From assembly GCA_027623295.1 (NCBI GenBank), contig JAQBXR010000013.1, positions 3,250 through 67,249 of the forward strand: a stretch of 64,000 bases of DNA, in the 5' to 3' direction. Position 1 is the stretch's first letter, and each line of letters starts with the position of its first letter. Origin of the DNA: Planctomycetota bacterium. Lineage in GTDB: Bacteria; Planctomycetota; UBA1135. Made by a program: the position numbers and the translations under genes. This document shows, in pieces, positions 4,753 through 46,506 of this stretch. The notes beneath the pieces are model-generated. The model saw only the letters and a list, made by a program, of their open reading frames with translations. It had not been told where the DNA came from and ran no database searches.

Positions 4753-4792
4753 GGTCGGTCCTAGTGGGGCCTGGTGCCCTTCATAAATCGTC

Positions 4793-4975: not shown

Positions 4976-4981
4976 AGCTGC

Positions 4982-29646: not shown

Positions 29647-31081
29647 GGCCCTGGACGGTAAACAACTTGGTGGCGGCTTTGGCATAGTCCATGCGCGCCT
29701 GGAACTCCTGTGTTTCCGCTACCGAAAGATCGGTCTGAAACTCCAGAACTTGAAAGTTGGTCGAAGCCCCTTCCTGCAAACGACGCTGCTCCGCTTCTAA
29801 CTGACGTCGGGCAACCGCACTCGCACGCGTAGTTACGGTGACGCGCTGCGCATTAAAGTTGATATTACGTACCGCATCGCGCACTTCATTGGCGATTTCA
29901 TTTTCCCGGTCACGCAAGTTGCGCACCGCCAAACGGTTCAACTGACGCGTCCGGTTTTCCCGACCCTCGTACTGCGCATTGCCGATTGGAATCTCAAACA
30001 GTAAACCAACGTTGTAGCCGGGTAAATCGCGGTCGGTCAGGCTGCTAAAAGCATCTCCAACTTGCGTCTCCTGCGCCGAATAGCTTCCGCTACCGGTGAG
30101 GTCCAACAGCGGCAAGGTATTGCGCTGAGCGACTTTCCAATCCAAATCGGTTTGGTCAATATCAATGCGCAGCTGACGAAGGTCAGCGCGGTATTCGCGC
30201 GCGGTTTCAAAAGAATCACGCCAATCAAGTTCCATGCTTTCAGCCACTGGAGGCAGACTGGATGGCTGCAATTCTAAATCCCATTGACCGCCATCTTCCA
30301 AACCGAATAATAAGATACGCAAACGGTCTGCGGATTGATGCACGGTGTTGTGCGCGGTGAGCAAGGCATCGGTCCGGGAAGCGATATCGGCTTCGGTTTG
30401 CACCACTTCTACTTCAGCAACTGCGCCAACGCGATACTTCGCTTCGGTCAGTGCTTTAAGCTCTTCTGCAAGCGATAAAGAGCGCTGCTTGACATCGCGG
30501 TCGGCATAGGCAAAGGCTAGGTCCCAATAAGCATCTACGGCGGCTTGCACGACGTCGGTGCCAGCTTGACGAATGCCAGCTAAATCACGGTCTCGCGCGA
30601 ACTCAGCCAGACGTATGGCTTGGGTTCCAGTCATATTCCATGCACCACGCAACAAAGGCTGGGTGAAGTTCAGCGCGACCGAAACATCGGACTGCGGAGC
30701 CGGCAGAAAACTGGCATCGTTATAGCTTTCTGTGAAAGACAAGTTGAACGAGCCACCCGTGGTTAAGGCTTGGCGGATGCCCTGGTTGGCATCGAAACGC
30801 TTACTCTTGGTGGTACCAAAGGCGCTAAAGAAACCATTTGCTGGCGACTCATCAAAGGAGTAGGTGGCATCTGCGAAAAGCACCGGATCAAAGGCGCCAT
30901 CGGCCTCAAGCACGCCGCCTTCTGCAGCTAGGGCGCGCAACCTGGCTTGTGCCAACATAGGTGCTTGTTCGGACGCAAGTAGGACCACTTCCTCCAAACT
31001 GAGCTGGAGAACCGGCGGGGTTTCAGGTTCCTGAGCGCAAAGCGTTGCCAGGAAGATGGGAGCAAAACAGAGGGACAGCAT
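29576..31081 (-). CDS. TolC-family outer membrane protein
   Basis: Signal peptide, LSLEEVV, FTQPLLRG, AYWDL, LPLLDL, EIPIGN, EQRRLQEGASTNFQVL. Two outer-membrane efflux repeats. Confidence 0.9.
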   Translation of the reverse strand: MLSLCFAPIFLATLCAQEPETPPVLQLSLEEVVLLASEQAPMLAQARLRALAAEGGVLEADGAFDPVLFADATYSFDESPANGFFSAFGTTKSKRFDANQGIRQALTTGGSFNLSFTESYNDASFLPAPQSDVSVALNFTQPLLRGAWNMTGTQAIRLAEFARDRDLAGIRQAGTDVVQAAVDAYWDLAFAYADRDVKQRSLSLAEELKALTEAKYRVGAVAEVEVVQTEADIASRTDALLTAHNTVHQSADRLRILLFGLEDGGQWDLELQPSSLPPVAESMELDWRDSFETAREYRADLRQLRIDIDQTDLDWKVAQRNTLPLLDLTGSGSYSAQETQVGDAFSSLTDRDLPGYNVGLLFEIPIGNAQYEGRENRTRQLNRLAVRNLRDRENEIANEVRDAVRNINFNAQRVTVTTRASAVARRQLEAEQRRLQEGASTNFQVLEFQTDLSVAETQEFQARMDYAKAATKLFTVQGLNWDGSRPDLADLDQYLPSQKSE

Positions 31082-31162
31082 GGTAGTAAGGGGCTACCGG
31101 AAGCAGCCACGGGCATATCCTACGCACCTGCGGCCCGGAAGTTGGCAAGGAATGGGGTGCGC

Positions 31163-31861
31163 CTAGTTTTCGCTCAAGAAGGGTGCGCCTTTCCAAGCCA
31201 GAGGGGCCTCGGCAGTTGAAGCTAATTCCCCCGTCAACACCCAGTGCCAGGCGGCATAGGCGCTTCGAGACGCGTCATCGGCGCCGGGCGATACCTTGCT
31301 ATCCGCGCCAAAAGCTTGGATTTGGGCATCGTTTTGAGAGAAGACGCCTTCCTCACAGGCGGCCAAAAATGCGCTCCACTCTGCTTGCTCCACAGCAGGA
31401 ACTGGGCGCTGGGCCGTCTTCCAATTCATGCTGACCCGCGCCATGCGGCTTGCTTGCTCCAAGGCACGCAATTGCTCAGCCTTCAAGATCGGCTGCTCCG
31501 AATCGAACTCATCTTCGGGACCAATGATGGTGTAACCCGAGTCGCCATCGACAGCGTCTTCGCGCCAGCCTGCGTCGGAGTATTCCTGGCGTGGCTCGAA
31601 ACCGAGTTTTGGCTTTTCGGTTTCCATCGGGCCAAACATATAGAACAAGGCAGCTACAGGAGCCGCTGCAATGGTCATGACTAACATGCCGGCCGCCACA
31701 CGAATCAGTGGGTTGGACTGCATGGCAGAGCGGAAGCTCCAACTTTGGCGCACGCGAGCCTCTAGAACTTCGAAAAAATCCTCTGACAATTCCGGCTGCG
31801 GGTATGCAGAACGCAACTCCTCAGCAAAAAGATCAAGCTCGTTTTCTTCTTCGAGATTCAT
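31163..31861 (-). CDS. Putative anti-sigma factor (single transmembrane helix)
   Basis: Overlaps the ECF sigma stop. Short cytoplasmic N-terminus, one transmembrane helix, extracytoplasmic C-terminus. Confidence 0.65.
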   Translation of the reverse strand: MNLEEENELDLFAEELRSAYPQPELSEDFFEVLEARVRQSWSFRSAMQSNPLIRVAAGMLVMTIAAAPVAALFYMFGPMETEKPKLGFEPRQEYSDAGWREDAVDGDSGYTIIGPEDEFDSEQPILKAEQLRALEQASRMARVSMNWKTAQRPVPAVEQAEWSAFLAACEEGVFSQNDAQIQAFGADSKVSPGADDASRSAYAAWHWVLTGELASTAEAPLAWKGAPFLSEN

Positions 31862-32412
31862 GCTTCGTTACCGGGGTTTAGGTTTTGCACGCGATCGCGC
31901 AAACGGCGCAGGCTGTAGTAAACCCGCGATTTCACCGTTCCAATGGGGATGTCCAAAATCATCGAGACCTCTTTGTAGGGAAGTTGCTGAAGCACCGCAA
32001 GCTCGAGAAGTTCACGCGTCTCTTGGTCAAGTTTGCCGAGTGCGGCGCGGAGTTGAACCACGCGGTCATCGCGATCGGCGGACTCCACGGGGCCCAGTTG
32101 TACATCCAAGCCTTCGTTGGCCTCTTCTGAGGAGAACTCACGGCCGGAGCGTCGGCGATTATCGATCCACAGGTTGCGCGCGATGTGCAGGCAAAATGCA
32201 TCCAAACGCCCGCTAGGTTGGTAGCGAGGCAAGTTCTGGATGATGCGGACGAAAACATTTTGGACCAGGTCTTCTGCAGTGGATGGCTGCGCGCCTTGAC
32301 GGAGAAAGTAGCCCTTGAGCCGAGGGGCCATTTCCGAAACCAACTCGTCAAAGGCAGCGGAATCGCCGGCTTTAAATCGAACGAGGTAGTCATCTGGGGC
32401 TCCCGTGCTCAT
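31858..32412 (-). CDS. ECF RNA polymerase sigma factor
   Basis: GDSAAFDELV, AEDLVQNVF, IARNLWID..RR, LPYKEVS..LDIPIGTVKSR. Confidence 0.93.
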   Translation of the reverse strand: MSTGAPDDYLVRFKAGDSAAFDELVSEMAPRLKGYFLRQGAQPSTAEDLVQNVFVRIIQNLPRYQPSGRLDAFCLHIARNLWIDNRRRSGREFSSEEANEGLDVQLGPVESADRDDRVVQLRAALGKLDQETRELLELAVLQQLPYKEVSMILDIPIGTVKSRVYYSLRRLRDRVQNLNPGNEA

Positions 32413-32452
32413 GAACAAGGTCTGCAGGTAAACGGGTTAAGGGCAACAGAGT

Positions 32453-32935
32453 TCACGCTTTCTGCACCTTTTCCCAAGAATTTTTGAGGTCTTTTCGCAG
32501 AGCCTCAGAACGCGGGCCAAGGCCCATTAATTGCAGTAAACGTCCACTTTTCTCCACTATTAGACGGATTTCCAGCCGATCTGCAGGCCACCACTGCTCC
32601 AGGCGGTCAGCCCACTCCACTAAAACGACGTGCTCTTGGTCAAAACGTTCACACAAGCCTTCGCCGAGCAAGGAATCCATACGCGCTTCGAAATAGGCAT
32701 CTAGGTGTAAAACCGGGTGCCGCCCCTCATGCTCTTGACACAGGAGATATGTCGGCGAGCGCAACGGGGTGCTGCATTTCAAGCCGCGCCCGATGCCGCG
32801 GCTAATGCTCGTTTTACCGGTGCCAAGCTCCCCAATCAGGGCAACGCAATCTCCTGCCAGAAGAAGGCCTCCGAGAAGTTCACCAAAGCACTCCGATTGC
32901 GCTTCGTCGGCCAAGAAATAGGCGTGAGGCTTCAT
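32453..32935 (-). CDS. tsaE: tRNA threonylcarbamoyladenosine biosynthesis ATPase TsaE
   Basis: GELGTGKT, SPTY, HLDAY, VEWA. Conserved thiL-tsaE pairing. Confidence 0.93.
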   Translation of the reverse strand: MKPHAYFLADEAQSECFGELLGGLLLAGDCVALIGELGTGKTSISRGIGRGLKCSTPLRSPTYLLCQEHEGRHPVLHLDAYFEARMDSLLGEGLCERFDQEHVVLVEWADRLEQWWPADRLEIRLIVEKSGRLLQLMGLGPRSEALRKDLKNSWEKVQKA

Positions 32936-33840
32936 GACCAATGATGCTCCCAGCCTTTCGCTTTGAGTCGTTTACCACGACCATTTTCAAGCCATCGAAG
33001 CTTCGAGCCTTCCGTGACGAAGCCGATGGCATGTATGCCCACCTTACGCAAAGTACGATCCTCCATCGCACGTTTGGATTGACTCGGATTCAGAATGACA
33101 AGCAACTCATAGTCTTCCCCTTCCCCCACAGCAGATTCCCAACCGGCTTGATTTTGGCTAAGAGACCTATCTAAAGGCAATGCGGTGAGTTCGATTTCTG
33201 CACCCACCGCACTCGCGCGCAAGATACGCGGCAAGTCCTTGGCGAGACCATCGGACAAATCCATCATCGCATGAGGCTTAAAGTTTTGCACCAAGCGTTT
33301 CCCTTCGCGCAGCCGCGGTTCGGGAAGTAGATGGGAGCCTGTAGTGAAAGATGCCCCGAGTTTCCCAGTGACGAGGATGACATCGCCAGGTTTCGCGCCG
33401 GCACGTCCTGGAACCGGACCGTTGTCCAACCCCATGGCGGTACAAGTTAAAACTACCTGAGAGGATTGACTACAATCCCCGCCGATGACCGGGACTTGGA
33501 AGGCATCGGCCTCTTTGAGGAAAGCTTTAGCAAGGGTGCGAATCTGTGACGCGGTCCAATCCGTAGGCAAAGCCAAAGTCCAAGAGACGGTCCAAGGTGT
33601 CGCCCCCACCGCGGCAAGGTCACTCAAGGTACGGCGCAGGAGTTTGCGCGCATACGCGGTTGGGGTGGCATGGACATCTAAATGCACGCCGCCAACGACT
33701 TGGTCGACGGTTTGCAGCAATCGACGCCCCTTTGGAGGGGTCAATTGCGCACAATCTGAACCTGGACCCAGAATCCCCTTTCTTCCGGCGAAGGAAGATT
33801 GGAAAATGCGATGCAGGCTTTCCTCGCTGAAGCCACTCAT
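32932..33840 (-). CDS. thiL: Thiamine-monophosphate kinase
   Basis: GPGSDCA, LSDLAAVGATP, IGGD, VTGKLG, MMDLSDGL, GEDYELL. Start ATG 33840. Confidence 0.92.
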   Translation of the reverse strand: MSGFSEESLHRIFQSSFAGRKGILGPGSDCAQLTPPKGRRLLQTVDQVVGGVHLDVHATPTAYARKLLRRTLSDLAAVGATPWTVSWTLALPTDWTASQIRTLAKAFLKEADAFQVPVIGGDCSQSSQVVLTCTAMGLDNGPVPGRAGAKPGDVILVTGKLGASFTTGSHLLPEPRLREGKRLVQNFKPHAMMDLSDGLAKDLPRILRASAVGAEIELTALPLDRSLSQNQAGWESAVGEGEDYELLVILNPSQSKRAMEDRTLRKVGIHAIGFVTEGSKLRWLENGRGKRLKAKGWEHHWS

Positions 33841-33843
33841 CTT

Positions 33844-34329
33844 ATGTACCCTAGGACTCGGACCCCACGCCAGAATCGCGGCCTCACTCGTTTCGAGTGG
33901 CTGTGGACGCTGCTGTTGCTTGCCTTCATTATTGGCACGATTGTAAGCACCCTCGACGCAGAAGTTGAGCGTGGAAACGAACGAATGGCGCGCGACGCGA
34001 TTTCTTACCTTTCCAGCCAACTCTATCTTGGACTGGAAACGCAAGACTTTGCCAGTCCGGAAACTCTTCCGCTTCCTATGTTGGGCCCTGGACTGCCGCC
34101 GCGTGGTCTTCCCCTCGGCGGTGAAGAACCTGCGCGCCTAGCCAGCATCATGCCCACATCCGGTTATCTGCCGGTGGACCCTTGGGGTCGTGGCTATGTG
34201 CTCCTTTTGGGCACCGCCGACGGCATGCTCAGTCTGTTTGTCGTCTCCAGCGGCGGCTCCGGTATTTTGCCAATCGACGTAGGATTAACCACGCCGCTTG
34301 CCGCGCGCGTGCACTTCCCAATCAACTAG
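33844..34329 (+). CDS. Pilin/pseudopilin-like protein (GspG-like C-terminus)
   Basis: Basic leader, then G|LTRFE followed by a hydrophobic helix (class III signal-like). PVDPWGRGY..VVSSG motif as in GspG. Confidence 0.7.
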   Translation: MYPRTRTPRQNRGLTRFEWLWTLLLLAFIIGTIVSTLDAEVERGNERMARDAISYLSSQLYLGLETQDFASPETLPLPMLGPGLPPRGLPLGGEEPARLASIMPTSGYLPVDPWGRGYVLLLGTADGMLSLFVVSSGGSGILPIDVGLTTPLAARVHFPIN

Positions 34330-34931
34330 CGATCCCACGCACGGCTGAGCTCAGTCATGGTGACAAGGTTCTTCGCCGCACGCAAAACGGCAACCCCGTA
34401 AGCCCCGGCTGCTTTGCAGGCTGCCACCCGTTCTGCGGACTGGATTCCACCAATGGCGATGACCGGTACCTTGGTGTTTGCACAAAGGGATTCCAGGCGT
34501 TCTAAACCCCGCGCTTTGAGAAAGCCTTGCTTTTCCGGCGTATCCCAAATCGGGCCAAAAATAAGGAAGTTGGCACCATCCCTTACCGCGGTCTGAACTT
34601 CTTCTTCGGAGTGCGTCGATTTCCCAAGAAGTAGGCTAGGGAATCGTTTTTTATAAACCGCTAAAGGCAAACTGCGGAAACCTGCAATCACGGCATGAGC
34701 CTCAGTAGCCTGTGCATAATCGGCCATGCCGTGGACGGCAACAAAGGATTTCTGCGCGACCATTGCCCTAAGGACTTGCAGAGATTCTCTCGGTTCGCAC
34801 CTAGGTCTGCGTAAGGTTACCGCTGCAGCTGGCGCTGCGGTCGTCAACCAAGCTTGGCCTTCCGCAAATCCCTCGAGGTCCGAGCAAATGGCCCAAATCC
34901 CCTTTGGAATACTGCTTGCCTGGTGCATCAT
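34326..34931 (-). CDS. Thiamine phosphate synthase/TenI family protein
   Basis: GKSTHS.EE, FGPIWDTPEK, PVIAIGGI, GAYGVAV. N-terminal QxRxK motif is degenerate. Confidence 0.8.
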   Translation of the reverse strand: MMHQASSIPKGIWAICSDLEGFAEGQAWLTTAAPAAAVTLRRPRCEPRESLQVLRAMVAQKSFVAVHGMADYAQATEAHAVIAGFRSLPLAVYKKRFPSLLLGKSTHSEEEVQTAVRDGANFLIFGPIWDTPEKQGFLKARGLERLESLCANTKVPVIAIGGIQSAERVAACKAAGAYGVAVLRAAKNLVTMTELSRAWDR

Positions 34932-36925
34932 TAAGCCGAGCGCAAACTCGCGCCGTAATCACGCACCCAAGCGGAAAGGGCTTCCACTTTCACTTCACTA
35001 TGCAACTTTACGGTGCTGTCATCGACCCGATCGAAACCAATGTCACGCAACCCCGGGTGGAGAGAAATGCGATCTAGGACCTCTTTCTGTTCACAAAAAA
35101 GATGGCCGCCTTCAGACAAAGTCACCAGGCCACCTTTCCGCGCCCAAGATTCCAATGAGTAACTAACGTTTTGCGGCATTGGAGTGCGGCTGTTTTCGGT
35201 CAGCAGCTTTGTAATTTCATCTAACCGCATGCCTTCTGATAAAGCTCGGTGCAAACTCGCAGGAGTGATGCGGTAATGATAGAGAGAGTCCGTGAATTCA
35301 CGATCTGCAAAACGATCGAGGCGATATACCAACTCATGGCATCGACGGTCGGGGAACAACACGACTTCAAAGTCAGGGTTCACCACAATATGACCACTAC
35401 CTTCGATTTCACGGCCCGGCATGATGTCAAGCAACTCCGCCCCTACGCGAGTGAGTCGAATCGCCACAGCACGGCCAATGTCGTCATAGGCCATATCGAT
35501 GATGCCGAGCAAATACAGGTATTTGCGCATCCAAACGAACAAGTTCCAGGACAGGCTTCGCAGGTCTGAGGAGGAGCGCACCGGAAAAGACGACTTATCG
35601 TTCGCTGTTTCTTCGGCAGAAGTCAGGTCCGCAAGGTGGTGGTTGCGAGCCACGAATGGGAGAAACATCGCGTCGTACCAAACGCCTGGTTCGAGACGTT
35701 TGATGTAGCGCAAAGTGGTCCGCCGCAAGCGAAACTGGTGACTTAAATCGCCAGGCAACTCGCGATCTTCCACGAACCAGTCCAGCATTAAGCGTTGTTT
35801 CTCGCGCAGAGTCATGCTCAGAAAGGTTTGCGCTTGCGGAGTTAAGCGAAAACTACGCGTACCGGTGCGGTCGATAAAATTGCACGCAAGAGCAAAACGA
35901 TACTCGAGTTCGAGGATTTCGAAACGTCGAAACTCGCGACCCGGGTTCGGCAGCAGCTGTTCGGCAATTCGCTTGCCGGTACTTTTATAAATCGTTCCGC
36001 GGGTGGTGAAGCGGACCGTATCACCTGCCACGAAGGAGGCAAAACGGGAAAAGTTCGACACAAAATCAACACCTATCGAAGCGATCGATTCCGGACTCGG
36101 CTCCCCCGTCAACGAATGGTTTTTCAAAATCGCGACGACCACTTCCTGAAACAAGCACAGCACCCGTCCATTTTGACGAATGCCGGAGTTCTCTAAGTTC
36201 AGGGACAACCGCGTACCCAAAGAGTTTTTCTCTAGAGCTTTAAGGACCACATCGATCTTCGTCTCACGACCAAGTTCATCGTAATCGCCAACCGGTAACA
36301 AGCCGCCCCAGCGCATGGCGAGATCTTCCACAATTTCACGCACGAGGGGTTCCAAGTTTTCGAGGCGCGATAGCACGGCAGCTTCACTTGCAAGCAGGGT
36401 GTACATTTTGCGCACCGCTTCACCACCGGAAGCGCCTGGAATTTTGGTGCGGTAAAACTCGGTCAACCAGCCACGCAGCGAGATGGGACTGCTCGTGACT
36501 AACTCCTGCGCACCCTTTGCGGGCAACACGGCAGCCAGTTCTTCTGGGATGCCCCAAAGATTCGTAGTGGCACCATTGCTGCTATGACTCAAATGAGCCA
36601 CAAGCCCAGTGGAAACAAGATCGGCGAGTGCAGGGCGCACACTTCGCTCAGCAACCCCTTCCTTGATTGCGTTGGAACGCAAGGCATCAAAATCATGGCC
36701 ACCACCTGCGCCTTCACTAAGTACACGGAATACGGGAGCCAAAGCTCCGTAGAGGCCTGAACAAAAATTGCTAACCGAAACCGGGTCCACCATGCGGTTG
36801 CGCAGGTTTTGCACCAAGTCGGCACGACGGGCCGGCGGAGTTCCTCCAATCCAGCGGTCGTGCAAATCGATCAACTCACTTTCCGAACGGGAAGCGAGAG
36901 TGCGAGCAAGGGAGAGGCGAACCAT
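34931..36925 (-). CDS. XPB-associated protein with C-terminal helicase-associated (Helicase_C_3-like) domain
   Basis: C-terminal IVVNPDFEV..RFAD..YHYRITPASLHRAL..G..PMPQNV..L..W parallels the N-terminal domain of the adjacent XPB (HTYRITPVSVWNA..GIPQNF..W). Confidence 0.8.
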   Translation of the reverse strand: MVRLSLARTLASRSESELIDLHDRWIGGTPPARRADLVQNLRNRMVDPVSVSNFCSGLYGALAPVFRVLSEGAGGGHDFDALRSNAIKEGVAERSVRPALADLVSTGLVAHLSHSSNGATTNLWGIPEELAAVLPAKGAQELVTSSPISLRGWLTEFYRTKIPGASGGEAVRKMYTLLASEAAVLSRLENLEPLVREIVEDLAMRWGGLLPVGDYDELGRETKIDVVLKALEKNSLGTRLSLNLENSGIRQNGRVLCLFQEVVVAILKNHSLTGEPSPESIASIGVDFVSNFSRFASFVAGDTVRFTTRGTIYKSTGKRIAEQLLPNPGREFRRFEILELEYRFALACNFIDRTGTRSFRLTPQAQTFLSMTLREKQRLMLDWFVEDRELPGDLSHQFRLRRTTLRYIKRLEPGVWYDAMFLPFVARNHHLADLTSAEETANDKSSFPVRSSSDLRSLSWNLFVWMRKYLYLLGIIDMAYDDIGRAVAIRLTRVGAELLDIMPGREIEGSGHIVVNPDFEVVLFPDRRCHELVYRLDRFADREFTDSLYHYRITPASLHRALSEGMRLDEITKLLTENSRTPMPQNVSYSLESWARKGGLVTLSEGGHLFCEQKEVLDRISLHPGLRDIGFDRVDDSTVKLHSEVKVEALSAWVRDYGASLRSA

Positions 36926-36927
36926 GT

Positions 36928-38628
36928 CTAGGATTGCGAGGACAACAAGCTTTCTGCGGGAAGGATTTGATAGGTGTAACCTTGCTCGGTCAGGAATCGC
37001 TGACGCTTCTCGGCAAAATCTTGATCGGACGTTCCTTCACTCACCAGGGTGTAGAAAGTTGCACCTCGACCGTCCTTCTTCGGTCGTAAGATCCGGCCTA
37101 AACGCTGGGCCTCTTCTTGGCGTGAGCCATACGTGCCCGAGATCTGCAGGAGCACGTTAGCATCGGGCAGGTCAATCGCGAAGTTGCCGACCTTAGAAAC
37201 CAACAAGACCCTTTCGGTGCCATCGCGGAAGGCTTGATACAGCGTATCGCGTTCTGGATTTGGCATTTTTCCGGTAATCAAGGGCACGCCTAGTTCCTTT
37301 TCCAAAGCATGCAGCTGGTCTAGGTACTGGCCAATAATTAAGACGCGATCGCTACTGTGCTTTTCGAGCAAGGCAATGAGGGAATCGGTTTTACTTGGGT
37401 TCTCGGAAGCCAAACGGAATCGGGCACGTTTGCCAGAAGCCAAGTACTCCAAACGTAATTCCTCACTGAGTGGAACGCGCACTTCCACACACTCAACCGT
37501 AGCGATGTAACCACGCCGTTCCAGGTCTTTCCACGGTGCGTCGTAACGCTTTGGCCCAATCATGCAAAAGACTTCATCTTCCTTGCCGTCTTCTCTCACC
37601 AATGTTGCAGTAAGGCCAAGCCGACGACGCGCTTGAATTTCAGCGGTTGCGCGGAAAACCGGAGCAGGCAGCAAGTGCACCTCGTCGTAGATAATGAGGC
37701 CCCAATCTCCTGAAGAGAACAAGTCGAAGTGGACAAAGTCTTCCGTCTTGCTCTTACGGTAAGTCAGAATCTGATAAGTGGTCAAAGTAACCGGCTTAAT
37801 TTCCTTAACCTCTCCGGAATATTCACCGATTTGGTCCTCGGTAAGTTCGGTTTTATCCAACAACTCACGACGCCATTGACGTAGTGCCACCGTATTAGGC
37901 GTGACGATTAAAGTATGCGCGCCCACAGCTTCCATGGAAGCCAAGCCAACGATGGTTTTCCCGGCACCGCAAGGCAGAACCACCACACCGCTGCCGCCAT
38001 CTACGCGACCGCCTTGGTGAAAACTCTCAACCGCATCGATTTGGTAGGGACGTAAAGCAAACTCCTCGCCATTGGCCATCGTGGTACGCACCTTGATGTC
38101 CAGAGAGGAACCTTGGACATAACCCGCCAAGTCGCGCACGGGATAACCCAACTTCATGAGGCGCTCTTTGACTAAACCGCGACGCGCTTTGGTCACCGTG
38201 GCAAAACCTTCACCCCTCTCATAAGAGTCAAAGTGGCACACAAGATCGGGATCGTGCGACAACTCCGCAAGCACCTTGGGCTCAGTAGTCTCTAGGCGCA
38301 GCAATGCCTTATTTTCGGGATCTGCAACCAAGCAGAAAACTTCAGAACGAAAAAACCAAGTGGTCACTTCCACCTGGAAGTTCTGAGGGATGCCATAGCG
38401 CGCATTCTCCGCCAGAAAACTTAAGACTTGGTCTGCATTCATGCCCACCGCACCGGCATTCCAAACTGAAACCGGGGTAATCCGGTAGGTGTGCAAATAC
38501 TCTGGCGACTTGACCAATTCTGTGAACGGCAACAGACCACTACGCATCGCGACAAAGTCAGGATGAGCGGTCTCCACCACGATAGTCATATCGCTTTGGA
38601 GGATTAACGGGCGGTCGCCGAGGCTCAA
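36928..38628 (-). CDS. XPB/Ssl2 (Rad25)-like SF2 DNA repair helicase
   Basis: LRPYQ, VLPCGAGKT, DEVH, GLTATLVREDG (RED motif), QEEAQRLGRILRPK. TTG start abuts the uvrA-like stop. Confidence 0.95.
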   Translation of the reverse strand: MSLGDRPLILQSDMTIVVETAHPDFVAMRSGLLPFTELVKSPEYLHTYRITPVSVWNAGAVGMNADQVLSFLAENARYGIPQNFQVEVTTWFFRSEVFCLVADPENKALLRLETTEPKVLAELSHDPDLVCHFDSYERGEGFATVTKARRGLVKERLMKLGYPVRDLAGYVQGSSLDIKVRTTMANGEEFALRPYQIDAVESFHQGGRVDGGSGVVVLPCGAGKTIVGLASMEAVGAHTLIVTPNTVALRQWRRELLDKTELTEDQIGEYSGEVKEIKPVTLTTYQILTYRKSKTEDFVHFDLFSSGDWGLIIYDEVHLLPAPVFRATAEIQARRRLGLTATLVREDGKEDEVFCMIGPKRYDAPWKDLERRGYIATVECVEVRVPLSEELRLEYLASGKRARFRLASENPSKTDSLIALLEKHSSDRVLIIGQYLDQLHALEKELGVPLITGKMPNPERDTLYQAFRDGTERVLLVSKVGNFAIDLPDANVLLQISGTYGSRQEEAQRLGRILRPKKDGRGATFYTLVSEGTSDQDFAEKRQRFLTEQGYTYQILPAESLLSSQS

Positions 38629-41600
38629 TTAAGTCGCAAAAAGGGGATGATGTTCCCTCCATTCATGCCCGGAATGGGCAAAGGGGAAGCCTGCAATTCT
38701 AGAGGAAATCTGCTCCGCCTCCAAGGGAATCCACCCAGCCAAAGCTAAACCGACCCGTGCCCCTCCAGAACTGGCTGGTCCGACATCCGCTGCAGAAGCC
38801 ATCCAGGTGGCGAAAGGAGCCAACATACGCGTGCCCCTGGGTAGCCCTCGAAGCGGCGCATCGAGTTCAAAACTGCCTAGTCCAAACTCCGAAGCCCATG
38901 TAAATACAGCATTTAGGCGTGGATGGTCAGCAAAGAGCTGCTGTAGGTCGGCAATCTTCTGATGGCCGAGATCCATCCATCGCACGCCGCGCTCCTCGAG
39001 AGCTGCCATAGCACTTGACCAGCCAGTTCCATGGCAACTGCGACAGGAAAGAGACCACTCTGGATGCAGCCAAATACGGCGTTTCCCGAGGCAAACAGGG
39101 CATCGGTGGGCGGAACGCTGGACATCTAAGTCTTCTGGCCCCCATCCATTGAGGCGGGCGGTTTCGGACTTCTGGAAGTAACTGCTGAGCTCCCCCTCCA
39201 CGCTTAAGGCGCTGCGTAAATCGACATCGGCCTTCGCGCGCGGCGGATCGCACCACTCTTTCATGGAGAATGGCATAGGAAAAGGCATCGGCGGATCAAG
39301 GAGCAGATTTTCCTTGGCCGTAGGAGTGGACTCAAGCGCCCATCCTTCCGGGTCGGTGAAGTGGAAGATGGAATCGCCCTTGAGCATGCGGGTGGCAAAT
39401 CGTTTCGCAATCGCGGGAGGCAAACCAGAAAGCGGTTGATCGGCAAGCAAGACGACGCCTTGCAGTGGATTTAATAACCAACCGGCCAAACGCGCCGCTT
39501 GTTTTTCCAAATCGGTGAGTGAAGTCCAGGTATGCCCAACCGTCCGCGATAATAGTGAGGTTCCGGCTAACAACTCCAGGCTCTGTACAAAGAGTGGCGC
39601 GATGTCCTCTTGTTCCGCACAAACGCGCAGCACATCTCGCAACGGATAACCCTCTAACTCCGATGCTTTCAAAGTACCGAGGCGCGCCTCCATCGGAATG
39701 TTTGCACGTTCACAATCGCGACACGACTCCGGATGAAAATGCCATTGATGCTTAAAGCTGTTGGGATCCACCGCCAATGCTTTTCCTTCTCCGAGCAAGG
39801 CCGCATGATGCGCGATGTCACGTAAACGCCCTACGGCATCTTCTTGCAGCGGGTTAAAACGATCAAGCCAAACTAAGTCACCCGACTGCAAAGGCTCCTG
39901 CTCCTCACGACGCCAACGTATGGTTTTCCCACCGCGCAAGAAACGTCGAAAGCCGGCGGCTTGTAACCATGCGCTATGCTCTTTACGTGCCAAAAAAGCA
40001 TAAGGTAAGGGAGTGGCAAATATGAGGTCATCGGTCTTGGATAAGGTGCGTGCGGCTTGTTCAAAAGACAACCACGGGCCGCCTCCACCACATCCAGCGC
40101 AAACCGAACTGCCGTGGGTTTCCAACACCTTCTGGATAGGCGCGGCTAAGCCGAGCACTTCCGCTAAATGGGTGCCGCGAGGTGGGTCTACTGGCCACGC
40201 GGCAGGCGTCCAATCCTCTTCCATCTGAGCGGAAGACGTCGCACGCTCCTCGGCTTCGACGCCGACTAAATCATGCAGAAGTGGGCTTCGCATGGCCAAT
40301 TCGCGGGCCAACTCTTTTTCCAAGTGATGGCGGCCGGAACGTTCAACATCTTCCTCGAAACGTCGACTCCGCAAGGGTTGACGAGGCGGCGGCAGCGGTG
40401 GTTCTAACTCCGTGCGACGCCGAGAAACTAACCAATGCCCAGTTGGAGTGTCTTTCTTAAGGACCCCTTCCACCTTGCCTTGATAAATCAACTGTCCACC
40501 TTCCGCTCCTGCGCCAGGACCGATTTCCATCATCCAGTCCGCGGACCGCAAAAGGTACTCATGGTGCTCGACCACCCAAAAACTATGGCCATCCTTGCAG
40601 AGCTCCCGCAACAACTGCACCACGCGCCGCGCTTCCTGCACCGGCAAGCCTAAACATGGTTCATCCAGGAGAAACAATTTCGGCGCACCGGGTCGTGCAG
40701 TAGAAAGAACTCGCGCCAAAGCGATGCGGCCGCGTTCCCCCAAAGATAGGAAACGTCCGCGTTCACCAAGGGTGCGATTCCCCATGCCAAGTGCGATGAG
40801 ATGACGCACCGTATTGCGTAACCTTCCTTTGGCTGGAAGACGCTTTTCCAGTTTATCCAAAGGTGTGGTCAACCAGTCACGCAAAGGGCGGTTGCGTAAA
40901 CGCAAGTCCAACAAGTCGTTGCGCAAACCCAATCCATCGCAAGCGGTGCATGGAAGATGATGCGCATCGATGGCATAACCATTACAAACCGGACATGCGC
41001 CTTTGCCAGGCCGCGCCACTAAAGCACCCGCTTCAATCCCACGAATACGTGCTTCTTCGCTTGAGGCAAAGGCTGCCCGAACTTCCTGCCAAACTCCGGA
41101 CAAAGTGGCAATGGTGCTTGCCGGCGACCATCGCAAAGCACGCTCCAGTAAGGAATGCACACCACCTTCAGGGATTTTACCCTGTACGTTTTCCTCGGCA
41201 CGAAGTCGTGGAAGAATTTCCTGCTCCAGCAAGGTGCTTTTCCCGCTTCCCGACACACCGCAAAAAGTCACGACACGCCCTAATGGAACACTCAACTTTT
41301 TCATGCTTAAGTGCCGTGCCTTAATCTTCGGGAAGTGCAAATACTCCTTCGCTTGGGTCGCGGTTGAGGGGTCGTCAACCCAGTCCTCTTGGGGCAACTC
41401 ATCACGCTTACCTTGGCAGACAACCTTGCCGCCTCCAGGACCACCCTGTGGCCCTAAAGCCAACCAGTGATGCGCTGCTTCCAGAAACTCACGCGCGGGA
41501 TCCGCAGTCAAAACGGTGTTGCCTTGTGCCACTAATTCCTGCAGCAAGGCCGCCACAGTTTGCCGCTCCTTGCCATGCAATCCCATTCCGGGTTCATCCA

Positions 41601-42630
41601 ACAAAACTGTTTGGCCGCGGCGCACTTGCGCAATCCACGACACCAACTCCAAACGCCTTGCTTCGCCGAGGGAGAGAGTTCCCAATAAGCGGTCTCCAGC
41701 TAGGTGCCCGAGGCCAGTGCGTTGCAACAACTCTAGCCGGCGACGTGCACGGCCCTGCTTCGGTAACGGTTTCAAGTCGAGCCACTCTTGCAACGGCAAA
41801 CCCATCCAAGTGGACCATGCCTTGCCATCGAGAATGCGGTCCTGCAGTTCCAGATTCCGATACCAATCTTCCTGTGCATGGCTCGCGTGCTGCAAACCAC
41901 ACTCAGGACATCGGTCGGCGGCGGCGAAGTTGAAGGTCTGCTGATCCACCACCAAGCGCATGGCCACGCCACGGGCTAGGGATGAGGCCAGTGCATCGCG
42001 AAGCCGCGTTTCTTGGCCTGAGCGCCACTTAAAACGATCTAATAAGAGCCATGCATCTTCCACCAGACGTGAGGGCGCTTCTTCCAGGCGGGCAAGGGTT
42101 TTGCCTACGCGATAACGCGTCCATCCCGCTTGAAGGAGAGCAGCGGAATCGGCATCAGAAGCGGCGGATAACACCAAAACCGTGGAACTCTCTTGCCACC
42201 GCTCACTCATAGCCAACAAGCCTTCTACGGAAGGTGGACGCCAAGTGGATGAGCATGCAGTGCATTGATAGAGACCCTCTTGGGTCCATGCCTTCTGCAA
42301 GAGAGACAAGAGATCCAGCACCTCCACCAAAGCAGCCTTCTTACGCCCGCGCGGAATCTCCCCAGCCGAGGCAATCACCGGATCTAAACCAACCACCCCA
42401 TCGGCCAAGGGCTTCAACCAAGATTCTTCAAGCCCAGGCAAGGCGCGTGGGTCTTCAAGAATTTCAAAACGTCGGCGCGAAACGGGTTCCAAAACGCCAA
42501 ACAGCAAAGCACTCTTGCCGGCACCACTCGGCCCATGCACGGCAGTCCAACTGCCGCGTTGCAATTCCAGGTCGAGGTTCTTTAAGTTGCCCGCACGCAA
42601 ACCCTGCAGACGTATCGAGTCCTCAGACAT
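38629..42630 (-). CDS. Divergent tandem UvrA-like ABC ATPase with degenerate C-terminal half
   Basis: NLKNLDL, GPSGAGKS, TLSLGE..R, LLDEP, GVSGSGKST, LSLGE, LLDEP, VVEHH, GPGAGAEGG. Four CxxC..CxxC zinc fingers. ATPase motifs eroded in the second half. Confidence 0.85.
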   Translation of the reverse strand: MSEDSIRLQGLRAGNLKNLDLELQRGSWTAVHGPSGAGKSALLFGVLEPVSRRRFEILEDPRALPGLEESWLKPLADGVVGLDPVIASAGEIPRGRKKAALVEVLDLLSLLQKAWTQEGLYQCTACSSTWRPPSVEGLLAMSERWQESSTVLVLSAASDADSAALLQAGWTRYRVGKTLARLEEAPSRLVEDAWLLLDRFKWRSGQETRLRDALASSLARGVAMRLVVDQQTFNFAAADRCPECGLQHASHAQEDWYRNLELQDRILDGKAWSTWMGLPLQEWLDLKPLPKQGRARRRLELLQRTGLGHLAGDRLLGTLSLGEARRLELVSWIAQVRRGQTVLLDEPGMGLHGKERQTVAALLQELVAQGNTVLTADPAREFLEAAHHWLALGPQGGPGGGKVVCQGKRDELPQEDWVDDPSTATQAKEYLHFPKIKARHLSMKKLSVPLGRVVTFCGVSGSGKSTLLEQEILPRLRAEENVQGKIPEGGVHSLLERALRWSPASTIATLSGVWQEVRAAFASSEEARIRGIEAGALVARPGKGACPVCNGYAIDAHHLPCTACDGLGLRNDLLDLRLRNRPLRDWLTTPLDKLEKRLPAKGRLRNTVRHLIALGMGNRTLGERGRFLSLGERGRIALARVLSTARPGAPKLFLLDEPCLGLPVQEARRVVQLLRELCKDGHSFWVVEHHEYLLRSADWMMEIGPGAGAEGGQLIYQGKVEGVLKKDTPTGHWLVSRRRTELEPPLPPPRQPLRSRRFEEDVERSGRHHLEKELARELAMRSPLLHDLVGVEAEERATSSAQMEEDWTPAAWPVDPPRGTHLAEVLGLAAPIQKVLETHGSSVCAGCGGGGPWLSFEQAARTLSKTDDLIFATPLPYAFLARKEHSAWLQAAGFRRFLRGGKTIRWRREEQEPLQSGDLVWLDRFNPLQEDAVGRLRDIAHHAALLGEGKALAVDPNSFKHQWHFHPESCRDCERANIPMEARLGTLKASELEGYPLRDVLRVCAEQEDIAPLFVQSLELLAGTSLLSRTVGHTWTSLTDLEKQAARLAGWLLNPLQGVVLLADQPLSGLPPAIAKRFATRMLKGDSIFHFTDPEGWALESTPTAKENLLLDPPMPFPMPFSMKEWCDPPRAKADVDLRSALSVEGELSSYFQKSETARLNGWGPEDLDVQRSAHRCPVCLGKRRIWLHPEWSLSCRSCHGTGWSSAMAALEERGVRWMDLGHQKIADLQQLFADHPRLNAVFTWASEFGLGSFELDAPLRGLPRGTRMLAPFATWMASAADVGPASSGGARVGLALAGWIPLEAEQISSRIAGFPFAHSGHEWREHHPLFAT

Positions 42631-42632
42631 GC

Positions 42633-43481
42633 TTAACTCTCTCGATCCCCTAGATTGGGGAAATCATCGCCTCGATTTTCGGCCAGGATTTGACGCGTAG
42701 CTTCGACCAGCTTGGTGGGACCGGCAATGAGATTGGCATCAAACACCCAATCGCCTCCGGGGCGCAAAGTGTCCACCACACCTCCAGCTTCTTGTACCAA
42801 GAGACCGGCAGCGGCCACATCCCATGGGGAAAGATGCATTTCCCAAAAGGCATCGATGCGACCAGCGGCAACGTATGCCAGGTCGATGGCCGCTGAACCC
42901 ATGCGCCGAATACCGCGTTGGTGCAGGAACATGCGGTTGAAGTTCTCGAGGTTGTTGTCCGCGAGCAGATGCCGGCGATAAGGAAAACCTGTCGCAAACA
43001 AGGAATCCAGGGGTTGGGAGCTGTTTGAGACTTGAATCGACTTTCCATTTAGGAAAGCGCCACCGCCGCGAATCGCAATGAAGGTCTCTCCCAAACGTGG
43101 TAAATGCACGACGGCAACTTCCGGTACCCCACGACGAAGACGGGCAATCGATACCGCAAACATCGGCAGTTCATGCACGAAATTTACGGTGCCATCCAAG
43201 GGGTCAATGCACCACATCGACTCGGCATTGGGATTGCGCATCGGCTCATTGGCACTTTCTTCGGCAAGAAAAGCGTCGCTGGGGAAAGCGTCTCCTAAAT
43301 GCTTCAACAAATAAGCTTCACTGGCCAGATCCGCCTCTGTCACCAAATCGCGTTTGGCGCTTTTTGAGCCGATCTGATCACTACTTAGTCGCCCGCTCCA
43401 ATCAAGGAGGATTTTGCCAGCACCCACGGCAAGTTCTTCGGCTTTTGCAAGCACCCCATCTAACTCCGAGTTTTGGTTCAT
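42633..43481 (-). CDS. suhB: Inositol monophosphatase family protein
   Basis: DLVTEAD, LAEE, WCIDPLDGTVNF, RRMGSAAIDL, WDVAAAGL. Confidence 0.92.
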   Translation of the reverse strand: MNQNSELDGVLAKAEELAVGAGKILLDWSGRLSSDQIGSKSAKRDLVTEADLASEAYLLKHLGDAFPSDAFLAEESANEPMRNPNAESMWCIDPLDGTVNFVHELPMFAVSIARLRRGVPEVAVVHLPRLGETFIAIRGGGAFLNGKSIQVSNSSQPLDSLFATGFPYRRHLLADNNLENFNRMFLHQRGIRRMGSAAIDLAYVAAGRIDAFWEMHLSPWDVAAAGLLVQEAGGVVDTLRPGGDWVFDANLIAGPTKLVEATRQILAENRGDDFPNLGDRES

Positions 43482-44926
43482 GCTTCTTCCTGAAGGAACT
43501 GAGTGAAAAACTCAGTTTGCAAGGCTTGAAAACGGCGATTGTTGGTGTTCTTGTTCTTGGAGCGATCGAAATTGACCAAAAAGGAAAACACTGCGATACG
43601 ATCATCCGGCAATAACAAATAGCCACTCAAAGAACTTGCTCCAAGAATGAACCCAGTTTTCGCATGCAAACGTTGCGGTGCAAAGATGGCATCCTTAAAT
43701 CTCGGTTTCAAACTGCCGTCCACTCCACCAATCGGTAGGGTGTCAAAGAATAAAGCTCCACGTGGGTGTTCTGCCATGGCACGCAGGATGGCGCACATCT
43801 CCTCAGCAGTACAGGTGTTTAAGTCTTCGCTATCGGAGCGAGTCAAGCCGCTGCCATCGGCCTGTTTAAAGGTCAAATCTCGCTTGAGAGCTTCACTTAA
43901 AACTTCGTGAATCGCTGCGATGCCAGAGGCGTAATCACCCGCTTGTTTGCGCTCGGCGCCCAGAGTTTTCAACACCACCTCGGCCAGAAAGTTATCGCTT
44001 TCCTTGTTGGTAACCACGAGCACATCGGCAAGGGTCCAAGCGGAGCGCCAATCGAGTAACAACTCGCCGGAGCTCTCTGCTGCACTGGAGTCTAAATGCC
44101 GAACTTCCTCGACGGTAACGCCATACTTAAGCAACGCAGTCTTTAGCCATGCGGCATACAACACCTGAGGATCTTGCACCGCAAAACGCACACTCTCCTC
44201 CTTACCACTCAAGGAAGGAGCCACCATAATTTCATTGGGTTGACTTCCCCACCATGCAGAAATCGACTGGCCGCGTTTTTGGGCATACCGAATCTTCATA
44301 CCTTGGGAGACATCAGGCAGCGTCCAGACCTTGTCGCCTGAAATGTAAACTTCGAGGACTCCGCCTTCGACCGATAGCGCGGAAACCGGGGCGCAATAAG
44401 TGGCTTGCGCTTGATTACTAGGCCAACCGGAATGCCGAACCTGGTCGCCAAAATAACGCCCATCTAACTCCAAGACGGATAGGGTTGTTTTACCGTGCTG
44501 CTTCAAAGAATCCGCCATATCGCGCGCAAAACGATCGGCATAATCGACATCGCCAATGCGGCGCAGGGATGGATCACCTTTCCCTACCACGCGCACGATG
44601 TCCTCGTTCAGATAGACCTCGGTATACCAACGATAGGTGTCCTCCAGCGCCATTAAGGCTGCTGTGGTGGTAAGGATTTTGGTGTTCGATGCCAGACTTT
44701 GCGGGTCATCGCCACGGAAATCGTAAAGGACTTCGCCATCCAACAACGCAACATGCACCGCGACTTCGAGGAAGCGCTCGCCATCCACCGCAGCCAGCAT
44801 CGCATCCAATTCTGGACGCGCCATCTGCGGCGATGCCACGGCATCCACCTGCCCGGCCTGTGCGGCAAGGCCAGCAGGTGCCCAACACAACAGAATGGCA
44901 CTAAGGCCAATCCGCATGCTCGCCAT
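43478..44926 (-). CDS. dacB: D-alanyl-D-alanine carboxypeptidase/endopeptidase (peptidase S13, PBP4)
   Basis: Signal peptide. SxxK (ASNTK), SDN, KTG, DGSGL, GKGDPSL. Confidence 0.92.
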   Translation of the reverse strand: MASMRIGLSAILLCWAPAGLAAQAGQVDAVASPQMARPELDAMLAAVDGERFLEVAVHVALLDGEVLYDFRGDDPQSLASNTKILTTTAALMALEDTYRWYTEVYLNEDIVRVVGKGDPSLRRIGDVDYADRFARDMADSLKQHGKTTLSVLELDGRYFGDQVRHSGWPSNQAQATYCAPVSALSVEGGVLEVYISGDKVWTLPDVSQGMKIRYAQKRGQSISAWWGSQPNEIMVAPSLSGKEESVRFAVQDPQVLYAAWLKTALLKYGVTVEEVRHLDSSAAESSGELLLDWRSAWTLADVLVVTNKESDNFLAEVVLKTLGAERKQAGDYASGIAAIHEVLSEALKRDLTFKQADGSGLTRSDSEDLNTCTAEEMCAILRAMAEHPRGALFFDTLPIGGVDGSLKPRFKDAIFAPQRLHAKTGFILGASSLSGYLLLPDDRIAVFSFLVNFDRSKNKNTNNRRFQALQTEFFTQFLQEEA

Positions 44927-46506
44927 TAGGGGCGTACTCCTTCAAATGCCACGGCCCACGCACAGGCGGTATATAACTTCGCGATTAAGGAGATTTTCTG
45001 GCCATCGATGGTTTCAGCGATGTCGGTTGGCTGGTGGTAGGACTTGTTGGAATTGAGGTCGGCTTCAAAGAAGAACAGACCCACCACTCCCTGCTGATGG
45101 AAACTGTACTGATCACTACGCGCATACAAATCACGCCCTTGTTCATTGTCCATCTTTAATGGACTCTTAATCCGCTTATGCATGTCCTCGACCAAATCAG
45201 TCCATCCCGGGCGATCCCAAAGACCGCCGATGTTGATTTTCTTGGTGTCGCCGCGCCCCACCATGTCCATGTTCAACATGGCCACAGCATTTTTTAGCGG
45301 AAAGACTGGTTCTTCGCAGTAAGCCTTGGAACCCAGTAATCCCATTTCCTCTCCCGTAAACCAGAGAAACAGGATGTCGATTTCGGGTTTGGTCCCAGAC
45401 AAGCCTTGCGCGACTTCCAACAAGGCAGCACTGCCGCTTGCATTGTCATCGGCGCCTGGGCGCAACTGAAAACGAACGTTATCGGCCGTCACATCGAAAC
45501 CAACGTGATCCAAGTGTGCGCCCAAAACAAGATGTTGGCCATCCCCCAATTTCCCAGGGAGAAGGGCTGCCAAGTTGAAGGAATTGCGATTGCCGCTCTC
45601 CCATGCCACGCCGAGACGAATCTCGACGCCCTTTTTAGTTTTCAACGTTTTGGCCTTCTTCAATTTCTCCATGCTGTAATAAAGCGCGGTGAAGTCCTCG
45701 TCAAAAATCCGCCCTGCAACCTCTCGGGAAACCGACATAACCGGAAAGGCCGGCAAGCCAAAGTTCTGCTGTAAACCTACTGGGCCGGCATTCCGGGTGT
45801 CCACAAAAGGCGACATGCCTGGTACCGGGAAGGTTTCGTCGATCAACATGCCCGGATCAGGGATTAGCACCAAAGCTATTCCACCGGCTTTTTCAATTTC
45901 ATCCGCCTTCAGCTTCACTTCCGAATAACGCGTTGAGGCGGTGCCATCGAAACGACGAGATTTAGGGTCATCCGCAAACGGTTCGCGGGTGAAGGCGAAA
46001 ACGATTTTACCCTTTACATCATTCTTCTTAATGTCCCGCCACTTTTCATTTTTGGAATCAATCGCGTAACCGATGAACACGCCTTCACCAAAAGCACTTT
46101 CTTCATGGCTACCGATGATGGGTACAAAATCTTTCTCCAACACCAAAGGCATTTCCTCCTTTAGGCCGCTTACTTCAAACTGACTCTCGGCACCAGCAAT
46201 GACACATCGCACGGCAACGGGAACCCGAAAGGATTCGCCATTGGCCGGTTGATAACCCAAAGCTTCCAGTTGCTCCTCCACATATTTTGCAGCCTTGTCG
46301 TGCCCTGGAGTTAAGGTGCCGCGGCCACCCATGCCAGGTGCGGCGAGAATTTGCACGTTGTCATAGCTATCCTCCTCCGAAATCGTCGCCAGCACTTCCT
46401 CCAAAGTAGTGCGCTCGTAAACCTTAGCTGTGGTGTCAGGTTCTTGCGCCCAAAGGGTTGGCGGAATCGCAAGAAGAGCAGTAAGGAGGAAGAGGATGAG
46501 TTTCAT
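44926..46506 (-). CDS. Secreted M28-family metallopeptidase with PA domain
   Basis: Signal peptide from ATG 46506. GAHLDH, GADDNASG, GEEMGLLGS, NMDMVGR, SDQYSF, YHQPTD. Confidence 0.92.
   Translation of the reverse strand: MKLILFLLTALLAIPPTLWAQEPDTTAKVYERTTLEEVLATISEEDSYDNVQILAAPGMGGRGTLTPGHDKAAKYVEEQLEALGYQPANGESFRVPVAVRCVIAGAESQFEVSGLKEEMPLVLEKDFVPIIGSHEESAFGEGVFIGYAIDSKNEKWRDIKKNDVKGKIVFAFTREPFADDPKSRRFDGTASTRYSEVKLKADEIEKAGGIALVLIPDPGMLIDETFPVPGMSPFVDTRNAGPVGLQQNFGLPAFPVMSVSREVAGRIFDEDFTALYYSMEKLKKAKTLKTKKGVEIRLGVAWESGNRNSFNLAALLPGKLGDGQHLVLGAHLDHVGFDVTADNVRFQLRPGADDNASGSAALLEVAQGLSGTKPEIDILFLWFTGEEMGLLGSKAYCEEPVFPLKNAVAMLNMDMVGRGDTKKINIGGLWDRPGWTDLVEDMHKRIKSPLKMDNEQGRDLYARSDQYSFHQQGVVGLFFFEADLNSNKSYHQPTDIAETIDGQKISLIAKLYTACAWAVAFEGVRP

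Follow-up and report, generated by a model that had tools for sequence, protein, structure and literature searches.

The stretch of DNA considered here, referred to as the window, comprises 64,000 nucleotides from a Planctomycetota bacterium (GenBank assembly GCA_027623295.1, contig JAQBXR010000013.1, positions 3,250 to 67,249; GTDB lineage Bacteria, Planctomycetota, UBA1135) and lies within contig C29 of a genome assembly of 2.45 Mb that is 88% complete. On its minus strand, three consecutive genes encode a UvrA-derived protein (P0001), an XPB helicase and a p52/Tfb2-like partner (P0003). An initial annotation, made from the sequence without database searches, had interpreted this trio as a candidate hybrid nucleotide excision repair (NER) system, in which the divergent UvrA might serve as damage sensor or loader for an XPB-partner complex instead of UvrB. 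The three genes are arranged as follows:

38629-42630, minus strand: gene of the UvrA-derived protein P0001 (open reading frame, ORF, of 1333 residues, ATG start)
36928-38628, minus strand: XPB helicase gene (ORF of 566 residues, TTG start)
34931-36925, minus strand: gene of the p52/Tfb2-like partner P0003 (ORF of 664 residues, ATG start)

P0001 is a single-chain asymmetric pseudo-dimer of two UvrA modules, one of which is live while the other is a structural relic; it descends from the tandem (double-length) UvrA of Planctomycetota, of which it is a decayed form. The curated UvrA models recognize it only by partial matches (277.6 bits against NF001503 with a cut-off of 1147, and 269.8 bits against TIGR00630 with a cut-off of 729.8); a profile built from 21 members of its family matches solved UvrA chains with E-values down to 7e-103. 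Roughly 42 protein clusters of the P0001 form are present in a collection of 5.8 billion proteins, and their names, if any, are “hypothetical protein” or “excinuclease ABC subunit A”. Within P0001, the following parts can be delimited:

40429-42630, minus strand: module 1 (residues 1-734), a UvrA-type double ABC ATPase according to the motif table and the family profile
41899-42264, minus strand: UBD1, a UvrB-binding-type domain in Zn module 1 (residues 123-244, CxxC at 123-126 and 241-244), located by hhalign
38632-40428, minus strand: module 2 (residues 735-1333), a UvrA fold without ATPase motifs according to hhalign, AlphaFold and Foldseek
39712-40101, minus strand: UBD2, the corresponding domain in the second Zn module 1 (residues 844-973, CxxC at 844-847 and 970-973), located by hhalign

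Module 1 consists of two ATP-binding cassette (ABC) nucleotide-binding domains, both equipped with Walker A (GPSGAGKS and GVSGSGKS), signature (LSLGE at both sites) and Walker B motifs (LLDEPG and LLDEPC). The Walker A, signature and Walker B (DEP) motifs at both sites and the H-loop of site II (VVEHH) are invariant in 21 of 21 family sequences; the H-loop of site I is replaced by TADPAR. When the family profile is aligned with Thermotoga maritima UvrA (3pih), residues 1-247 correspond to positions 1-260 and residues 282-732 to positions 431-913, and this alignment in two pieces takes in both ABC domains and the UvrB-binding domain but leaves no room for the insertion domain. At the respective position, canonical UvrA halves carry 102-135 residues, as opposed to zero in eight of nine N-terminal parts of the family (three residues in the ninth) and zero in all three aligned C-terminal modules. 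The Pfam family PF17755 likewise has no match in P0001, and Zn module 2 is missing together with the insertion domain. According to the available part of one account, UvrA touches DNA mostly through its insertion domain and signature domain II (PMC7835731).

A Pfam scan of residues 735-1333 alone returned no family, only zinc-ribbon-type noise, and for this reason profile-profile and fold comparisons were needed to recognize the homology of module 2. In hhalign, residues 962-1325 align with positions 403-895 of a canonical half (probability 98.9%, E 3.7e-17) and residues 753-972 with positions 34-255 (probability 95.6%). The top Foldseek matches of the AlphaFold model of residues 735-1333 (mean predicted local distance difference test score, pLDDT, 84.3; predicted template modelling score, pTM, 0.75) are UvrA chains, with E-values of 1.2e-17 to 1e-8 at 10-14% identity. 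In the motif table, Walker A is missing at both sites of module 2, the signatures are degenerate (SLTDLEK, GLPRGTR) and Walker B reads LADQPL (DQP), its glutamate being lost; three CxxC pairs are retained. The module has not been left to decay at will: across 21 sequences, the mean column identity amounts to 46%, and the nonsynonymous divergence (dN) is far below the synonymous divergence (dS), with a dN of 0.14 and a dS of ~2.5 (saturated) towards a close relative. As dS is saturated (~1.6-2.8 or undefined), the dN/dS ratios of 0.03-0.09 say no more than that dN is by far the smaller of the two.

Both modules carry a UvrB-binding-type domain. The segment containing UBD1 (residues 105-260) aligns with positions 99-265 of the canonical planctomycete UvrA half (hhalign probability 98.5%, E 2.6e-15) and UBD2 with positions 104-262 (probability 96.2%, E 2.2e-9), and the two domains also match each other (probability 97.5%, E 6.2e-12). 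A three-chain complex prediction of UBD1, UBD2 and UvrB domain 2, in which the test did not stand out from one of the controls, provided neither support nor counter-evidence and is not used as evidence here.

The initial annotation had expected a separate canonical uvrABC elsewhere in the genome; the opposite was found, as uvrB, uvrC and mfd are present, but no other UvrA. In the own genome, no gene matches above the UvrA cut-off, and the best match (213.8 bits) is the P0001 gene itself. A match above this cut-off occurs in one of 19 genomes of the window's family, as compared with 11 of 12 from other families of the same order, and strong UvrA matches (E <= 1e-90) were obtained in two of 49 family genomes representing 22 genera. 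One of the two is an 825-residue UvrA (L117:559-3036) on the 12-kb contig C94 of genome G001, which is class-II-like, having the insertion domain but no UvrB-binding domain; the second match is a gene fragment located where a contig ends. In the remaining 47 of the 49 family genomes, the P0001-type gene is the sole UvrA-family gene. Within the genus of the window, the 825-residue protein of G001 is the only strong UvrA match.

The clients of UvrA have been retained. In the own genome, uvrB (916.8 bits) and uvrC (404.4 bits) are located side by side on another contig, and both are absent from the contig of the window, in agreement with the initial annotation, which had seen neither in the window. 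Mfd (827.1 bits) is present as well, with a stretch resembling UvrB domain 2 in the same frame. All 31 relatives, the 19 family genomes among them, have UvrB; it exceeds the cut-off in 27, and the other four have it in split or truncated form, in most cases where a contig ends. Domain 2 is the UvrA-binding domain of UvrB, as stated in the available part of PMC3167621. Its identity within the family is 0.64 vs 0.70 for the rest of the protein (nine family sequences), and between the family and others it is 0.42 vs 0.59 (nine family and eight other sequences). Judged from these identities, domain 2 was reshaped on the family stem and then held under constraint, a pattern that fits co-adaptation to a changed UvrA rather than an orphaned domain. 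Because P0001 is the sole UvrA, because UvrB, UvrC and Mfd are kept and because UvrB domain 2 is conserved, P0001 most likely still loads UvrB.

As to how P0001 arose, three UvrA states were seen within the order to which the genome belongs. In the first, a single tandem UvrA with two complete halves adjoins XPB (G023, G026 and G027) or lies elsewhere (G024). In the second (G019, G022, G025, G028 and G030), a complete tandem or pair of UvrAs is located away from XPB and a diverged tandem beside it; in these diverged XPB-linked copies of five genomes from sister families, the insertion domain is missing in nine of ten halves and PF17760, the Pfam UvrB-interaction family, is kept. In G019 and G028, decay has gone further in the second half of the diverged copy: of its ATPase motifs, signatures, Walker B glutamate, H-loop and site-II Walker A are gone, and the site-I Walker A remains. 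From their motifs, these two paralogues look like an intermediate towards P0001:

L020:4245-9146 (G019) and L021:8185-12927 (G028): intermediate-like XPB-linked tandem UvrA paralogues, with complete UvrA genes elsewhere in both genomes

The third state, that of the window's family, is the same trend carried further, without any other UvrA. Loss of the insertion domain was seen only in XPB-linked UvrA copies. Regarding the ancestry of the two modules, a quick maximum-likelihood tree places module 1 of the family, on a very long stem branch (1.94), in a clade of 18 rows together with second halves of tandem UvrAs linked to XPB (support of 100 in the Shimodaira-Hasegawa-like approximate likelihood-ratio test, SH-aLRT). 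In the approximately unbiased (AU) test, a grouping of module 1 with the first halves is not rejected (p 0.18), and the motif pattern in G019 and G028 favours a live first half and a dead second half.

The second gene of the trio had been named XPB in the initial annotation, and this identity was borne out by the equivalog model NF045503 (807.3 bits, cut-off 610, model positions 1-547 of 548). Its Pfam domains are Helicase_C_3 (PF13625, residues 8-128), ResIII and ERCC3_RAD25_C, and GAGKT, DEVH and RED are seen in the translation, which we take to be helicase motifs I and II and the RED motif. One relative carries a second XPB copy (L030; G025:C9:15571-17196), which scores 531 bits against the XPB of the window and is adjoined by neither a partner nor a UvrA gene. 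For bacterial XPB, no established function is given in the available parts of PMC3353954 and PMC13024598.

The partner contains a single Pfam family, PF13625 (residues 514-634, 65.2 bits), so that this family is found in both proteins, as the initial annotation had noted for the C-terminus of the partner and the N-terminus of XPB:

35024-35386, minus strand: clutch-type domain of the partner (residues 514-634), common to the N-terminus of XPB, according to PF13625, the family profile and VIA-align

The family profile of the partner matches the human XPB N-terminal domain (NTD; E 4.7e-5), and yeast Tfb2 is a further, weak match (E 0.011). The Pfam family of Tfb2 itself, PF03849, has no match in P0003; it was detected in three of 16 relatives, where the matches cover only profile positions 247-356 in the C-terminal part and reach at best 24.3 bits vs a threshold of 34.5. 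For the structure prediction (mean pLDDT 83.0, pTM 0.56), the top 12 Foldseek matches are Tfb2/p52 chains or entries that hold them, with best E-values of 3.7e-9 to 1e-6. Their global template modelling scores are low, which is no surprise in a chain whose domains are mobile. In VIA-align, the model superimposes with the N-terminal half of p52 (6tru_D; Z 11.2, root-mean-square deviation, rmsd, 3.1 Å, 149 residues) and with human p52 (9pd3_D; Z 14.3, 298 residues), and its clutch-type domain with the XPB NTD (9a88_A; Z 15.0, rmsd 2.0 Å, 92 residues). The predicted fold thus identifies the partner as p52/Tfb2-like, with winged-helix repeats followed by a clutch domain that has the fold of the XPB NTD. 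XPB is recruited to TFIIH through the pairing of its NTD with the p52 clutch, a domain of the same fold, as described in the available part of PMC6422496; by analogy, the bacterial partner would bind XPB. No nuclease or Bax1-type family match was found in the partner by Pfam. The possibility that it stands in for UvrB domain 2 was considered and dropped, as neither the profile of UvrB nor that of the UvrA-like family shows similarity to the profile of the partner (probability 0.1%). In one relative with a 7-Mb genome in eight contigs, the partner gene beside XPB is present in two or three frame pieces (L017; G022:C1, partner region 4121-6952), which could be due to a frameshift or an assembly error.

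The association of the three genes is conserved and not a chance adjacency of this one genome; the absence of linkage in relatives that would have spoken against the initial annotation was not observed. Among 17 relatives of the same order, 15 of 18 loci contain the UvrA-family gene, XPB and the partner in this order on one strand; two of the remaining loci have XPB and the partner only, and one is the lone second XPB copy. In addition, an alignment of 16 partners was scanned against one genome per GTDB species, yielding 351 stretches with a relative, of which the best 80 were examined; these are the ones nearest to the query and nearly all are from Planctomycetota. A UvrA-family gene lies directly upstream of XPB in 62 of the 65 assessable loci among these 80; the other 15 were not assessable because the upstream side is cut off (eight loci) or because XPB is lacking at a contig end (seven loci).

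The junctions within the trio, as inspected letter by letter, are those of the initial annotation: the TAA of the UvrA-like gene abuts the TTG of XPB with zero gap, and the TAG of XPB is followed after two bases by the ATG of the partner. The flanking junctions are equally close. Upstream, the inositol monophosphatase gene ends with TAA two bases before the ATG of the UvrA-like gene, and downstream, the TAA of the partner overlaps by one base with the ATG of the next gene, which is TenI-like; both flanking genes were assigned by Pfam. Tight packing is therefore a trait of the whole gene row and not of the trio, for which the spacing by itself is nothing special. A promoter and terminator scan found no more sites than in shuffled sequence. 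The row extends over ten genes and is kept in 22 of 22 family-type loci:

29576-46590 of the window, and loci L035-L071 and L083: ten-gene row of M28 peptidase, S13 peptidase, inositol monophosphatase, UvrA, XPB, partner, TenI-like, AIR-synthase-type, TsaE and extracytoplasmic function (ECF) sigma factor genes, many of them overlapping or only 0-2 bases apart

The ECF sigma gene is followed directly by an ORF of 232 residues (31163-31861, minus strand) that matches no Pfam family; the position of this ORF suggests an anti-sigma factor. A defence-system reading of the locus was also considered. PADLOC reports mad3, a MADS component, with 142 bits in four stretches of P0001, which is taken as shared UvrA-type ABC ancestry, and PbeA with 83 bits for XPB, read as generic similarity among superfamily 2 (SF2) helicases; the partner has no PADLOC match. 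This reading was rejected, since the trio belongs to a row of housekeeping genes conserved on the chromosome.

The directly observed anatomy, homology, gene content and synteny can be combined into the following explanation, to which a probability of roughly 0.45 is tentatively assigned: the pseudo-dimer loads UvrB in ordinary UvrBC repair, and the XPB-p52-like pair is co-expressed with it and acts in the same damage response. P0001 would fold back on itself like a UvrA dimer, module 1 pairing with module 2 within one chain, and would sense damage with two instead of four ATP sites. Through its UvrB-binding-type domains, it would then load UvrB for ordinary UvrBC excision; Mfd might be received through the same domains and hand P0001 on to UvrB. 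XPB and its p52-like regulator would form a translocase pair, as in TFIIH, which would be co-transcribed with the UvrA sensor and probably serve the same damage response. Of these elements, service in ordinary UvrB/UvrC repair is probable, and a functional link between UvrA and XPB is no more than plausible, as unrelated neighbour genes share in the conserved synteny.

Several observations weigh against this explanation. All genomes are metagenome-assembled (69-92% complete), and close kin are not independent samples. PF17760 remains below detection in P0001 at E 0.01 (one family member reaches E 0.0017), so the UvrB interface could have changed. The spacer of the Zn3 CxxC pairs in module 1 is 11 residues long vs 19 in canonical halves, and module 1 may be a poor damage sensor without the insertion domain and the site-I H-loop; any one of the lost insertion domains, the lost H-loop, the shorter Zn3 spacer and the weak PF17760 signal could indicate an altered job. 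As to the link with XPB, three of the 65 assessable loci (at least 1.5 kb visible upstream) contain XPB and the partner without UvrA, members of the partner family were also detected in clusters of Chloroflexota, Myxococcota and Spirochaetota, where no UvrA link was seen, and 11 of the 19 more distant loci still have the downstream part of the row (AIR-synthase-type, TsaE and ECF genes). The conserved block is thus wider than the trio and includes unrelated genes, and adjacency is weaker evidence for a shared function.

The last three observations are also the strength of the alternative that survives best, according to which P0001 performs ordinary NER, the XPB-p52-like pair serves an unrelated DNA transaction and the two are neighbours only as members of a packed conserved row. 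The integrity of the whole ten-gene row in the family-type loci and the 0-2-base junctions or overlaps at unrelated neighbours point in the same direction. However, there are four distant loci, and only these four (L080, L081, L096 and L107), in which no flank gene of the row was found and the trio is still intact, so that it outlasts its surroundings. Moreover, in all five genomes with two UvrA loci, it is the XPB-adjoining copy that has the changed architecture, and this architecture is the form that the window's family keeps as its sole UvrA. A purely positional association is thus possible, but on the unlikely side.

A second alternative gives the two UvrB-binding-type domains different clients: one would recruit UvrB and the other the XPB-p52-like translocase, with XPB supplying DNA opening or clamping. 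Such a division of labour would give meaning to the conservation of two diverged domains, one of them in a module without other obvious job, to the confinement of insertion-domain loss to XPB-linked copies and to the operon linkage in 62 of 65 loci; the partner, however, has no profile similarity to UvrB (domain 2 included) or to the UvrA-like protein, and full-length canonical tandem UvrAs also adjoin XPB in G023, G026 and G027. Linkage to XPB is therefore older than the change in architecture and can exist without it, and we consider two clients improbable. Its boldest form, in which the half-dead tandem UvrA is a two-handed adaptor joining the UvrABC sensor to a TFIIH-type DNA opener, is quite doubtful; if it were true, the XPB pair would compensate for the lost insertion domains and the dead ATPase module. 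Finally, UvrB-independent excision, in which the divergent UvrA would load the XPB-partner complex in place of UvrB, could draw on operon linkage, translational coupling and the strong divergence of the UvrA, but is highly improbable given that uvrB, uvrC and mfd are retained in genome and family and would have no other UvrA to work with, that the UvrA-binding domain of UvrB is conserved within the family, and that no trio-linked nuclease was noticed in the window (which was not checked gene by gene) and the partner has no nuclease family match.

Of the initial annotation, the linkage and the domain that the partner shares with XPB are thus borne out, but the words “instead of UvrB” are not supported in view of the retained uvrB, uvrC and mfd, the lack of another UvrA, the two UvrB-binding-type domains that are kept and the constraint on UvrB domain 2.

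The family offers a natural experiment: with 49 genomes from 22 genera, it gets by on a UvrA that is without an insertion domain and has one live module of two, UvrB, UvrC and Mfd being kept. It raises the questions of whether a UvrA needs four ATP sites and insertion domains, and of whether a fused homodimer can evolve into an asymmetric sensor, for which the eukaryotic MutS homologues provide a precedent of a homodimer turning asymmetric. It also raises the question of whether the XPB-p52-like pair has a part in UvrA-dependent repair. The operon with UvrA across the phylum is one of the few genomic leads to the function of bacterial XPB, and the p52-like partner bears on the origin of the XPB-p52 module of TFIIH.

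Among known systems, TFIIH offers the closest parallel to the second half of the trio: in the XPB-p52(-p8) assembly (6nmi; available part of PMC6422496), as in the bacterial pair, an XPB with an NTD stands beside a protein of winged-helix repeats and a clutch-type domain. The bacterial partner differs in its length (664 vs ~460 residues) and in scoring below the Pfam Tfb2 threshold, no p8-binding end was identified in it (no p8-type module was sought), and the pair has no context of p8, p34, p44 or XPD. Mycobacterial XPB, the neighbour of which is presumably a Helicase_C_3 protein, belongs to the same NCBIfam equivalog. In contrast to the planctomycete gene, no UvrA linkage is described for it in the available part of its report (Balasingham et al. 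2012, PMC3353954). Archaeal XPB likewise has a dedicated partner encoded next to it, the nuclease Bax1 (available part of PMC7672443), whereas the bacterial partner shows no nuclease or Bax1-type match and is p52-like by fold. A search of open-licence PMC and bioRxiv records by titles and abstract starts retrieved no publication that deals with an operon of UvrA and XPB or with a p52 relative in bacteria.

With class I UvrA (3pih, 2r6f, 3uwx, 3zqj), P0001 shares the ABC-ABC core, Zn modules 1 and 3, a domain that by profile is of the UvrB-binding type and lies at the homologous place, and the presence of UvrB, UvrC and Mfd in the genome; it differs in reaching about one third or less of the curated cut-offs, in the missing insertion domain, Zn module 2 and site-I H-loop, and in that a fused dead second module replaces the second identical subunit. 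Class II UvrA (D. radiodurans UvrA2, Ecm16) has, like P0001, lost one of two accessory domains, but the loss is the reverse: according to the available part of PMC3167621, class II proteins are without the UvrB-binding domain and keep the insertion domain, whereas P0001 keeps the UvrB-binding-type domain twice and is without the insertion domain. The nearest relative is the double-length tandem UvrA of Planctomycetota, which consists of two complete modules of ~900-950 residues each (Mahajan et al. 2021, PMC8567305). It comes from the same phylum, has the same position directly upstream of XPB and combines two UvrA modules per chain; the available part of PMC8567305 does not mention XPB. P0001, with 1333 residues, differs in that both insertion domains are gone and module 2 is not ATPase-competent. 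The tandem UvrA itself is therefore already in print, whereas the half-dead form without insertion domains, serving as the sole UvrA of a whole family, is a new form of this known type.

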